Source of the DNA: a bacterium
GTDB taxonomy: Bacteria > Bacillota_I > Bacilli_A > RF39 > UBA660
Reading direction: 5' to 3'
Length of the DNA: 64,000 nt
NCBI GenBank assembly: GCA_029099845.1
Contig: JAQXOT010000011.1
Coordinates: 41,044 to 105,043, forward strand
Shown: in pieces, positions 43,863-46,959 of the stretch
Layout of the letters: every line of letters begins with the position of its first letter
How positions within the stretch are numbered: the first letter of the stretch is position 1
Notes under the pieces: model-generated
What the model was told of the DNA's origin: nothing
What the model saw: the letters and a program-made list of their open reading frames with translations, nothing else
Databases searched by the model: none
Position numbers and translations under genes: made by a program

Positions 43863-45434
43863 ATGATAGATAATGGCTTAACTAATAAGGCATATAAAGC
43901 AGGTGCTTATGTTCGACTTTCAGTAGAGGATGAAAATAAGGATATTGAAAGTGTTAGTATTACTAATCAAAGATTATTTATTAAAGATTATGCTGTTAAG
44001 AATGATATAGAAATATATGATTATTATGTTGATGATGGATATTCTGGTGGAAATTTTGATAGACCGGGATTTAAAAGATTAATAGAGGATATTCAAAAGG
44101 GAATTATTAATTGCGTTATAACAAAAGATATGTCTAGATTGGGGAGAGAGTTTATTGAAACTGGGGGTTATGTTTTTAAATATTTTCCAGAAAATGATAT
44201 AAGATATATTGCTATACTTGAAAATTATGATACTTTAAAGCCTAATGGTATGGAAGATATATTACCGTTTAAAGCAGTAATTAATGATATGTATTTAAAG
44301 GATATATCTAGGAAAATAAAAAGTGTTAGGCACAATAAAATGAAAGAGGGTTTATTTGTAGGTAGCACAGTTCCTTATGGGTATAAAAGATCAACTGATG
44401 ATAGTAGAAAACTAGTAATTGATGATTATGCAGCGGGTGTTGTTAGAAAAATATTTGAAATGAAAAAAGATGGAAGTACTAATAATATGATTGCTAGGCA
44501 ATTAACAAATGATGGGGTATTACCACCGGATGTTTATAAAAGAAAAAAGTTAAATAAATTTACTATTACAACTAATATATGGAAGGCTAGTTCTATAAAA
44601 ACTATATTAACAAATGAGGCTTATATTGGTAATTTAATTCAGGGTAAGTATGAAAGAATAAGTTTAAAGTCGAAGAAAAAAAGATTATTACCGCGGAGTG
44701 AATGGATAATAAAAAAAGGTGCTTTACCACTAATTGTTTCAAAAGAGTTATTTGAAAAAGTTAATATGTCAAAAAGAAAGACAGATACTAGATTTAGACA
44801 GTATGATTATTTGTTGAAAGGGTTAGTGGTATGTGCAGATTGTGGAAAGACTATGTTAGTACGAAGAAATAAAAATTATACTATTTATCTTTGCCGAACT
44901 TATGCAACTTATAGAAATAAGGTCTGTAGTATGCATTATTATCGAGAGGATATTTTAAATGCTGTAATATTAAAAGAAATTAGAGATGTTTTAATTAAAT
45001 ATTCTTCTTTTGAAATGTTAGTTTCAAAATATAGATATCTAATTACTAATATATGTTTAGAAGAAAACTATGAGAAAGATTTGAAATTATTAAAAAATAA
45101 AGTAACTATTATTGATAAGGCTATTAGTGAACTATATAAAGATAGGGCAAATAATGTTATCGAGTTTAATGAATTTTCTTGTATTAAAAAGGAATTAGAA
45201 AAAGATAGAGAAGAATATGTAATAAAGAAAAAATCTTTGCAAACGCTACTTGAAAAGTCAAAAACTGTTTTATTTAATGAAAATACAGAATTGAAGTGGA
45301 TTAATGAGTTTTTGAAATTCGAGATATTAGATAAGAAAATAATAAAAATGTTAATAGATAAGATTGAAATAAACCAGGATAAGAGTATAAAAATATGGTT
45401 TAATTTTAATGTTAGACAGGTATCTAATGAATAA
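43863..45434 (+). CDS. large serine recombinase (CcrA/SpoIVCA-like), first of tandem pair
   Basis: Resolvase catalytic N-domain AYVRLSVEDENK...SITNQ (Ser nucleophile). Then a recombinase domain and a C-terminal zinc ribbon CADCGK...C. Confidence 0.85.
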   Translation: MIDNGLTNKAYKAGAYVRLSVEDENKDIESVSITNQRLFIKDYAVKNDIEIYDYYVDDGYSGGNFDRPGFKRLIEDIQKGIINCVITKDMSRLGREFIETGGYVFKYFPENDIRYIAILENYDTLKPNGMEDILPFKAVINDMYLKDISRKIKSVRHNKMKEGLFVGSTVPYGYKRSTDDSRKLVIDDYAAGVVRKIFEMKKDGSTNNMIARQLTNDGVLPPDVYKRKKLNKFTITTNIWKASSIKTILTNEAYIGNLIQGKYERISLKSKKKRLLPRSEWIIKKGALPLIVSKELFEKVNMSKRKTDTRFRQYDYLLKGLVVCADCGKTMLVRRNKNYTIYLCRTYATYRNKVCSMHYYREDILNAVILKEIRDVLIKYSSFEMLVSKYRYLITNICLEENYEKDLKLLKNKVTIIDKAISELYKDRANNVIEFNEFSCIKKELEKDREEYVIKKKSLQTLLEKSKTVLFNENTELKWINEFLKFEILDKKIIKMLIDKIEINQDKSIKIWFNFNVRQVSNE

Positions 45435-46959
45435 TAGGTTAATAGTAGCTTATGTTAGATTATCTCAAGAAGATAAGAATAAATTAAAAGATTTTTCAGA
45501 AAGTATATATAATCAGATAGATTTAATAAAGTCTTATGGAGAAAGTAAAGGTTTAAGAATTGATAAGGCATATATAGATGATGGATTTAGTGGAACTAAT
45601 TTTGAACGTTTGGGTTTTCAAAAATTAATTGCTGATATAGAAAAAGGGCTTGTTCGGGTAGTAATTACAAAAGATATGTCCAGGTTAGGTAGAAATTTTA
45701 TAGAGTGTGCGTATTATATTAGCGAGTATTTTCCCAAATATGGGGTAAGATATATTGCAATAAATGATAATTTTGATAGTAAATATACTAATGATAGTGG
45801 GAATATTGTAGTTAGTTTTAAATCTCTAATTAATGATAGGTATGCAAGAGATATTTCGATAAAAAGAAAAAAGATTGCAGATATTAAAACATGTGATGGA
45901 CAGTTTATAGGTTTTATAGCTCCTTATGGATATAAGATAGTTAAGAAAGATGGCAGAAGAACTTTAGAAATAGATGAAGATGCGGCACTAATTGTTAGGA
46001 GAATATTTACTGAAATAGCTTTAGGAAAAACAAGACAGGAAGTTGCTGATGGTTTAAATAATGATAAGATTTTATCTCCTATATTATATATGAATATGAG
46101 GCCGGCCAAGAATAAGAAATATTATTATGATTGGTCTAGTAATATTATTTATAGAATATTAAAAAATAAAACTTATACTGGGAAGATAGTAAAAAGAAAG
46201 TCAATTAAAAAAAGTTATTTACAAAAGAATAGGAAAATTATTCCTATAAGAGAAAGACAAGTAATAGATAATTGTCATGAGGCAATAGTTACAGAGGAAT
46301 TATTTAACAGAGCAAATGATAAATTAATTATTATGCAAAAGCATGAGAAAAAAGAATATAGTGGATTGTTGAGTGGTTTAGTATTTTGTGGAGAGTGTGG
46401 TAGGGCAATGCTTTTGTGTAAGAAGATGAATACTGGAGTGAGATATTATTTTGCTTGTACTAAAACTATTGATAGAAAATCTTGCCAAAATAGGACTATT
46501 GGAGATTTAAAACTAAAAGAAATTATTGTCTCAATATTACAAAGTATTGTTAGAGACTATGTATGTGAGGAGAAAATAGTATTGCAGGTTGTTAAAGATT
46601 TAGTTAAATGGGAAAGACTTAATTTAAAAATACTATATTTAAAAGAAAATATAGAATTATCTAATAAAAAAATAAGAAATTTATATTTGCAGAAAGTAAG
46701 GGAGGAAATTACTTTAGCACAATTTTTAGAAAAAGTAGCGAATGAGAGCTCTGCAAAAAAGAAATTAGAACAAAGATTAAAAGAGATAGAAAGATATAAG
46801 AATGTTGATATTTTGAAGTGCGAAATATCTACTCAATATAAAGGCTTTATAAATGATGATAAGTTTATGAGAATGATACTTGATGATTTAGTAGATAAAA
46901 TTATTATTTATAAAAATAATATAGTGAAAATATTATTTAAGTTTAATTTAGTTAATTAA
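45427..46959 (+). CDS. large serine recombinase (CcrB-like), second of tandem pair
   Basis: AYVRLSQEDKNK catalytic motif, zinc ribbon CGECGR...C. Overlaps the upstream recombinase (ATGAATAA) and ends ~75 bp from the right junction. Confidence 0.85.
   Translation: MNNRLIVAYVRLSQEDKNKLKDFSESIYNQIDLIKSYGESKGLRIDKAYIDDGFSGTNFERLGFQKLIADIEKGLVRVVITKDMSRLGRNFIECAYYISEYFPKYGVRYIAINDNFDSKYTNDSGNIVVSFKSLINDRYARDISIKRKKIADIKTCDGQFIGFIAPYGYKIVKKDGRRTLEIDEDAALIVRRIFTEIALGKTRQEVADGLNNDKILSPILYMNMRPAKNKKYYYDWSSNIIYRILKNKTYTGKIVKRKSIKKSYLQKNRKIIPIRERQVIDNCHEAIVTEELFNRANDKLIIMQKHEKKEYSGLLSGLVFCGECGRAMLLCKKMNTGVRYYFACTKTIDRKSCQNRTIGDLKLKEIIVSILQSIVRDYVCEEKIVLQVVKDLVKWERLNLKILYLKENIELSNKKIRNLYLQKVREEITLAQFLEKVANESSAKKKLEQRLKEIERYKNVDILKCEISTQYKGFINDDKFMRMILDDLVDKIIIYKNNIVKILFKFNLVN

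Follow-up and report, generated by a model that had tools for sequence, protein, structure and literature searches.

The window analysed here is a stretch of 64,000 nucleotides of bacterial DNA (assembly GCA_029099845.1, contig JAQXOT010000011.1, positions 41,044 to 105,043 of the forward strand). It is AT-rich, with about 27% GC, and holds an element that interrupts the sporulation gene yabG at a GA dinucleotide. At the 3' end of the element lie two overlapping genes for large serine recombinases (LSRs), which we call recA-type and recB-type; these labels belong to the present analysis, and the recA-type gene is unrelated to the RecA protein. The pair is preceded by a small gene, orf40, with a promoter-like motif and a ribosome-binding site (RBS), and six cargo genes lie further upstream (Table 1). 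Judged from its sequence and conservation, the module orf40-recA-recB is very probably the working recombination machinery of the element.

Table 1. Features of the yabG element and its flanks, in positions of the window.
Feature	Position	Strand	Details
yabG 5' fragment	35453..35712	+	Residues 1-87, ends at crossover GA; Pfam Peptidase_U57 positions 2-55
attL	35688..35735	.	B half-site (yabG coding, ...CCAGGTAAAATTTTGCATATA), GA 35711-35712, P' half-site (TGCTGA-N7-TTAAGTAAT, 35713-35734)
Cargo, six genes	35933..43525	+	Pfam, PADLOC
Promoter-like motif and RBS	43628..43666	+	AATTAAAT 43628-43635; CATATTGT 43648-43655 (CATA-type -10 box); AGGAGG 43661-43666
orf40	43674..43796	+	40-aa acidic protein MESKKEETVIRVYDKNGKNVQDVILEAFEKFLKLKLENIK; conserved directly 5' of recA-type
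recA-type LSR gene	43863..45434	+	523 aa; Pfam, orthologue alignment, AF2 model
recB-type LSR gene	45427..46959	+	510 aa; 8-nt overlap with recA-type
attR	47013..47062	.	P half-site (GTTACTTAAC 47016-47025, TCAGCA 47031-47036), GA 47037-47038, B' half-site (TGGTGATAATGATTATTTAG..., yabG coding)
yabG 3' fragment	47039..47558	+	Residues 88-259 of the reconstituted protein; Peptidase_U57 positions 119-280

An element inserted in yabG

The crossover was located by comparison with 11 other loci in which both junctions are present and with one uninterrupted relative, and the positions of GA in attL and attR therefore give an element of 11,326 bp. On the left side, an open reading frame (ORF) of 100 codons (35453-35755) follows rsmA/ksgA, and its product matches the beginning of the YabG peptidase model over the first 54 residues. 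This frame continues into element DNA and stops at 35755; the GCTGAT after the His-Ile-Asp codons in attL is element DNA rather than yabG. On the right side, a 163-codon ORF directly 3' of recB carries the C-terminal part of Peptidase_U57 and is followed by veg, spoVG, yabP and yabQ. The original prediction had placed the recombinase genes 75 bp from attR. They do adjoin it, and the distance from the recB stop (46959) to the inferred crossover GA measures 77 nt.

Joining the two flanks in silico at GA gives a YabG protein of 259 aa with the junction ...LPGKILHID/GDNDYLERC..., which scores 298 bits on TIGR02855 (sporulation peptidase YabG; equivalog cutoff 270). More than 100 database clusters are intact YabG proteins of 254-286 aa (mostly 259-263) that are 71-92% identical to the reconstituted protein, and the best of these (P0121, 92% identical) has the exact predicted junction. 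Its locus, L069, is syntenic and element-free, comes from a human gut metagenome, and matches the predicted attB at 80/84 nt with the join exactly at GA. The predicted junctions are a 33-mer for attB, TTTTGCATATAGATGGTGATAATGATTATTTAG, and a 31-mer for attP, AGAAGTCAGCAGATGCTGATATATATTTAAG. The identical element is present in the sequencing runs SRR21376892, SRR4425682 and SRR20981860. Precise excision is predicted to restore the yabG frame, and chance is excluded as the source of the observed recombinase pair and split yabG.

The yabG 3' fragment opens with an in-frame ATG (47067-47558) and retains the motifs GHDA and GACQS, which presumably hold the catalytic His and Cys. A terminator scan found none between recB and this fragment, and a truncated YabG could be made by read-through, without excision.

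Two paralogous recombinases

The original prediction described two large serine recombinases with resolvase, recombinase and zinc-ribbon domains, and the three Pfam domains are indeed present in both proteins. Resolvase (PF00239) was matched with E-values of 1e-19 for the recA-type and 1e-21 for the recB-type protein, Recombinase (PF07508) with 3e-21 and 2e-18, and Zn_ribbon_recom (PF13408) with 2e-14 and 7e-11, all exceeding the gathering scores. The proteins are paralogous, as had been claimed, with 35% identity over the full length (E 2e-73), and the motifs AYVRLS and KDMSRLGR are found in both. Their genes share the predicted overlap of 8 nt (ATGAATAA, 45427-45434). The recB-type protein has 510 aa from the ATG at 45427, and 516 aa from the first in-frame ATG, at 45409.

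In an alignment of 41 recA and 44 recB orthologues, the residues Y16, R18, S20, D57, R67, D89, R92 and R95 (recA numbering) are invariant, and the Ser nucleophile (S20 in the recA-type protein, S13 in the recB-type protein counted from the ATG at 45427) is retained in both recombinases of the window and in all 41 + 44 orthologues. The four Cys of the zinc ribbon are invariant across the same sequences, except for the fourth Cys in two recB. One of the two enzymes being catalytically dead, an outcome that the original prediction had raised against itself, is excluded since all catalytic residues are kept. Additionally, both genes are under purifying selection (omega 0.1-0.3). The AlphaFold2 (AF2) models of both proteins (mean predicted local distance difference test, pLDDT, of 77 and 81) contain every part of a complete LSR, among them two C-terminal strands and a coiled-coil hairpin, and the helical hairpins span residues 399-470 in the recA-type and 398-457 in the recB-type protein. 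Both enzymes look functional. Identity between the paralogues is 52% in the catalytic domain, 33% in the recombinase domain and 24% in the zinc-ribbon domain, and the low values in the latter two make it plausible that the recA-type and recB-type proteins have different DNA specificities.

The closest solved domain by sequence is, for both recombinases, the TnpX catalytic domain (94 and 90 bits, about 110 residues), which points to an origin of the pair distinct from that of SpoIVCA/SprA, in line with what had been proposed. A Foldseek search with the recA-type model gave full-length SPbeta SprA, PhiC31 and Bxb1 integrases as top matches. The NCBIfam models for CcrB, CcrC and XisF were matched weakly, all far under the cutoff (CcrB with 109 bits for the recA-type and 72 bits for the recB-type protein, against 900), and the CcrA model matched neither recombinase. 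By these scores, neither protein is a Ccr orthologue. What holds of the proposed likeness to CcrAB is the layout, the variable cargo, the central GA and the half-sites. The original prediction also counted TnpX-like systems among the tandem pairs, which was mistaken since TnpX is a single-gene system. Pfam did not detect DUF4368 in the proteins of the window.

Half-sites at the element ends

The predicted attP, GTTACTTAA CAGAAG TCAGCA GA TGCTGA TATATAT TTAAGTAAT, is a near-palindrome around the non-palindromic GA. Throughout the element family, the central GA is conserved and so are the att arms, with the consensus agTTAcTtAacaA..gTCAGCA for the P arm, tgTTacttAAa..aataTCagCa for the reverse complement of P' and TctAaATA.TCattaTCaCCA for the reverse complement of B'. 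The consensus of the B arm, CCaGGtAAaaTaTT.CATaTt, is unlike all other arms. Half-site identities were calculated for the 11 loci with all four arms (10 and the window), and over 24 nt the means are 0.55 for P-P', 0.43 for P-B' (0.47 over 36 loci) and 0.45 for P'-B', while B has 0.23-0.31 to any other arm, against a shuffled null of 0.28 +/- 0.09. The inner 8 nt have identities of 0.58-0.73 among P, P' and B' versus 0.16-0.25 for B. The half-sites P, P' and B' are alike, and B, inside the 5' part of yabG, is the odd one out. No further att-like site was found in the window, nor a second kind of such site.

This pattern of three similar half-sites and one divergent half-site is the strongest argument that the pair works as CcrA and CcrB do. 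By analogy with that system, we give joint action of the recA-type and recB-type proteins a probability of roughly 60%.

Conservation and turnover of the module

A recA profile scan of one genome per species (GTDB representatives) gave 65 loci, 51 of them with a recA orthologue of at least 40% identity. The carriers are almost all metagenome-assembled genomes (MAGs) labelled uncultured Bacilli, Tenericutes or Clostridia, from the gut of rabbit, mouse, deer, chicken and human. Directly after recA comes recB in 45/51 loci; in the other six, the contig end cuts the locus or it is disrupted, as in L031 by a recA stop codon and an insertion sequence (IS). A yabG 3' fragment lies within 60-2,500 nt after the module in 39/51 loci. 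The recA stop and the recB start overlap or almost abut nearly everywhere (ATGnnTAA, TAATG, TAGTATG), and most junctions have a GGAGG-like sequence within the 3' end of recA. From these junctions, the two genes appear almost always to be translationally coupled.

Some loci vary this arrangement. In seven species-level MAGs (L042, L044, L045, L046, L047, L053 and L054), the recA-type gene requires a +1 frameshift at CGG-AAA-A/GGA-AAA (GAA-A/GGA in L047), located at 7380-7390 in L054, just past residue 79 of the catalytic domain. The parts of recA before and after this site are both under purifying selection (omega about 0.1-0.2), and it looks like a conserved programmed +1 frameshift at AAA-AGG rather than a pseudogene or assembly error. 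In L015 (7482-11189), yabG is doubly interrupted: the 3' fragment is also split, near its residue 50, by another insertion, some 3.2 kb long, which carries a lipoprotein-like gene and a single unrelated LSR of 648 aa, 29% identical to recA. Stretches resembling an LSR N-terminus, with 29-43% identity to recA/recB, are found just 3' of recB in L021 (6392-6634), L036 (13206-13610), L071 (5957-6190) and L072 (3801-4247); these could be what is left of displaced recombinases, or a small third recombinase gene. In L023 (9341-21578), recA-recB starts about 400 nt after the yabG 5' fragment with no recognisable orf40, and the module can therefore occupy the left end of a rearranged element. At least 8.4 kb follow recB there without a yabG 3' fragment or any listed ORF on the + strand, a pattern suggestive of a single, very long gene that continues past the contig end.

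The recA and recB families are reciprocally monophyletic with congruent topologies, the identity between paralogues is 27-37%, and the pairwise distances of recA and recB correlate with a Spearman rho of 0.92. These trees bear on whether the module is a composite, i.e., two independent single-recombinase elements that became nested or fused at yabG. LSR elements do accumulate at yabG, as the second, unrelated single-LSR insertion in L015 illustrates, and the N-terminal LSR remnants after recB in four loci would also fit such an origin. However, recA and recB are sister clades with congruent topology, and in 45/45 informative loci the two genes overlap in the same order and are not separated by any att-like sequence. 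A composite origin is effectively refuted by this junction layout and tree congruence, and we regard it as extremely improbable.

The recA distances correlate far less with those of the host YabG-C (rho just 0.40). In L011, YabG-C is 92% identical to that of the window, yet the recombinases are only 64% and 54% identical, while the equally close host relative L069 has an empty site. The divergent module of L011 and the empty site of L069 imply that the module moved or was replaced among hosts, and vertical-only inheritance is ruled out by the low correlation with host YabG together with L011. These data also speak against a decaying remnant, in which yabG would be permanently split and the recombinases no longer used on the yabG site. 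The empty sites and different module lineages at yabG in close relatives imply ongoing gain and turnover, both genes are under purifying selection with invariant catalytic residues, and the att arms and central GA are conserved family-wide. Decay would agree with the lack of an excised junction in the contig collections and with the copy in L031, which has decayed through its recA stop codon and IS insertion. It would also agree with yabG being reportedly non-essential for spore formation in B. subtilis and C. difficile. Collectively, we find it improbable that the window holds such a remnant.

orf40 and its upstream region

The conserved 40-aa ORF in front of recA and the promoter-like motif upstream of it were overlooked in the original prediction. 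orf40 (40 codons) has a strong RBS, and its homologues, located in almost all loci at a distance of 5-300 nt 5' of recA, encode 34-48 aa and are mostly acidic. They share the motif ELVICVYD-x8-KILEAFExYLKS. Scans of orf40 with Pfam, NCBIfam and PHROG gave no match.

A bipartite motif, tTCATTAAAt-N12-TTCATAAnnTT, was found in 44/46 loci. Its CATAnnnT box lies 22-45 nt 5' of the orf40 start, with tTCATTAAAt about 12 nt further upstream, and a hairpin with a T-run is often located still further upstream. The host yabG genes have a similar CATAnnnTT box at the same spacing to the RBS, and a scan for sigma-70 promoters stayed at chance (28 found versus 29 expected). CATA -10 boxes typify promoters read by sigmaE and sigmaK, and in B. 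subtilis yabG depends on sigmaK. Characterised intervening elements as a rule have a small recombination directionality factor (RDF) controlled by the mother cell, such as CD1234 (72 aa) in skinCd and GirX (42 aa) in gin, which are precedents for a small RDF under sigmaE. Because of the promoter-like motif, the conservation of orf40 and these precedents, we infer that orf40-recA-recB is a mother-cell operon and regard orf40 as a candidate RDF.

Proposed mechanism

In the mechanism that we propose, the three-gene module would insert the cassette into yabG and excise it precisely. The two recombinases would act as a hetero-oligomer, as reported for CcrA/CcrB, with one paralogue recognising the yabG half-site that stands apart and the other the three half-sites of element type. 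Transcription would start from a mother-cell-type promoter (sigmaE/sigmaK-like, with a CATA -10 box), which would restrict excision to the sporulating mother cell, and the 40-aa protein would be the directionality factor, as the 42-aa GirX is for GirC.

The opposing view is a division of labour, where one recombinase (with orf40) excises the element, and the other integrates it into new hosts or resolves or fuses cassettes, as proposed for girAB of the gin element. In gin, girAB is unexpressed in sporulation and unneeded for gerE reconstitution. In the AF2 models, each of the present proteins also has the look of a full LSR that could work by itself, with a coiled coil of its own, and the near-palindromic attP would suit a homodimer. 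On the other hand, there is no third recombinase here, unlike in gin with its girC. Both genes belong to one translationally coupled operon with one conserved promoter-like motif and have diversified tightly together (rho 0.92), a second kind of att-like site was not found in the window, and neither gene is lost in the 45/45 informative loci. We therefore consider a division of labour unlikely, although it is the most serious competitor to joint action.

Several observations weigh against joint action under developmental control. The pattern of three similar half-sites and one divergent half-site does not by itself demand two proteins, because single LSRs can tolerate dissimilar half-sites, and allotting half-sites to individual proteins is guesswork. 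The one characterised intervening element that has a pair of LSRs is gin, and there girAB is dispensable for excision. The promoter assignment rests on a general consensus and on resemblance to the box upstream of host yabG, and no homology was detected between orf40 and any known RDF. The split may not fully abolish YabG function, because the 3' fragment keeps GHDA and GACQS. Finally, the attP junction that an excised circle would carry was searched for in metagenome_contigs (two degenerate patterns) and viral_contigs (one pattern), with 0 matches; this result is uninformative because excised molecules are rare.

A bolder version of joint action is that an SCC-like two-recombinase family has been turned into a developmental switch in uncultured gut Bacilli that form spores. 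Here, the recombinases would form an obligate hetero-tetramer with one paralogue on the invariant yabG half-site and the other on the three element-type half-sites, the 40-aa protein, made from a mother-cell promoter, would turn recombination towards excision, and a subclade would tune the dosage of the recA-type protein by the +1 frameshift. This version is speculative, and we hold it to be possible rather than probable. If true, it would provide the first case of a two-subunit LSR system tied both to an RDF and to cell differentiation.

Cargo and neighbouring genes

The six cargo genes of the window encode a vWA/solute-binding fusion, an XpaC-like Halogen_Hydrol protein, a 400-aa protein without assignment, TelA, an AAA ATPase and a GDPD-domain protein. 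The AAA ATPase is SpoVK/CbbX-like, and the GDPD protein has a weak WXG100-like N-terminus. By its gene content, the cargo looks like a tellurite/toxic-anion-type stress module. A defence system was considered and rejected, as PADLOC yielded just weak AAA matches (IetA/TRIP13). These six genes are absent from every other locus of the scan. The other elements are 5-12.5 kb long, and their cargo includes an AAA_14 ATPase; glycosyltransferase, kinase, radical-SAM and NUDIX proteins; sigma-70-like and dockerin proteins; or RelA/SpoT and ArgRS. No phage or conjugation genes were found among the cargo of the window and five other loci examined, and Pfam found no third recombinase gene in the window element. 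A phage origin was likewise rejected, since a scan of viral_contigs gave four short contigs bearing the same module without phage context.

Among the sporulation proteins encoded in the window outside the element, which bear on whether the uncultured host forms endospores, YabP, YabQ and SpoVG score above their equivalog cutoffs, while SpoVT matches its model but stays under the cutoff (182 versus 236 bits). The GC skew changes sign near 7,000 together with a switch in gene strand (about 6600-7100), which would fit a replication origin some 29 kb away from the element. At 31856-34454, a run of three paralogues, each coding for a secreted protein of about 190-210 aa, leads up to a gene for a SipW-type signal peptidase (TIGR02228), an arrangement that recalls a matrix or spore-surface operon of the TasA/SipW-like kind.

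Significance

Interruption of yabG, reported earlier for one C. botulinum isolate, is extended by our results to a diverse and widespread family in Bacilli of the animal and human gut, where carrier species, empty sites and different module lineages coexist among close relatives. The family would represent a second, independently evolved paired-LSR cassette system. CcrAB is clinically central, and the reason why it needs two recombinases is poorly understood. The clean layout of three similar half-sites and one divergent half-site, with dozens of natural variants, offers a way to compare how four half-sites are divided between two LSR paralogues. Additionally, orf40 is a candidate for a new RDF family relevant to LSR-based genome engineering, and the element would tie cassette mobility to sporulation control.

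Comparison with known systems

A previous report describes yin, an element in yabG of C. botulinum V73, which experiments showed to excise and circularise both in growth and in sporulation (PMC10747680). It interrupts the same host gene, but is prophage-like with one recombinase at its 5' end, and the authors reported none in other strains or species (PMC10747680). The present family is without phage genes, has two recombinases at the 3' end and is found in about 45 species-level MAGs. A literature search gave no paper on paired recombinases in a yabG element.

Like skin (sigK), SPbeta (spsM) and gin (gerE), the element interrupts a mother-cell sporulation gene and belongs to a group in which the cargo varies. 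As in skin, the LSR genes lie at the element edge, adjoining the 3' gene fragment. In common with the sporulation intervening elements are also the precise in-frame reconstitution, here predicted, and a small adjacent ORF as candidate RDF, as in skinCd, where the RDF CD1234 has 72 aa and is under sigmaE/SpoIIID control. The difference lies in the recombinases: in each characterised case one LSR suffices, whereas here an obligately paired LSR operon, whose two genes co-evolve, is the sole recombinase content, with catalytic domains that are TnpX-like and not close to those of SpoIVCA/SprA. The original prediction stated that known intervening elements use one recombinase, and it is right that one LSR does the job; however, gin in B. 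cereus gerE carries a girA-girB operon besides girC, of which only GirC, with GirX, is needed. An LSR pair inside an intervening element is therefore not unprecedented, while a pair as the sole and universally retained recombinase content is.

TnpX of Tn4451 provides the best solved-structure match for both catalytic domains. It acts alone, as a single-gene system, on a transposon with low target specificity, whereas the present elements are strictly yabG-site-specific and their recombinase pair has no DUF4368. Multi-LSR elements of Firmicutes resemble the family in their two or three tandem LSR genes, and one locus of our scan (L052) has three. Streptococcal integrative and conjugative elements are said to bear a triplet of serine recombinases.

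The closest parallel is CcrA/CcrB of the staphylococcal cassette chromosome SCCmec and of the ECC cassettes of enterococci. There too, bicistronic paralogous LSRs are the sole conserved genes, the cargo is variable, non-phage and non-conjugative, and one fixed site in a conserved host gene is used with the crossover at a central GA. CcrA and CcrB are reportedly allotted to particular half-sites. As far as a description citing Misiura et al. (2013) goes, GA lies at the centre of the SCCmec att sites, three half-sites are element-derived and similar, and the fourth overlaps the rlmH frame and is present in attB and attL; the family described here shares this arrangement at the sequence level, with the fourth half-site in the host coding frame. 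The systems differ in that the present pair is not orthologous to Ccr and that insertion in the middle of yabG splits the host gene, whereas SCCmec uses the 3' end of rlmH. The present module also adds orf40 and the CATA-type promoter-like motif, both conserved, while the SCCmec recombinases are reported to require no RDF. Collectively, we infer that an SCC-like cassette acts here as a sporulation intervening element, a variant that would combine known kinds, with joint action of the recombinases and developmental control suggested by analogy with these systems.

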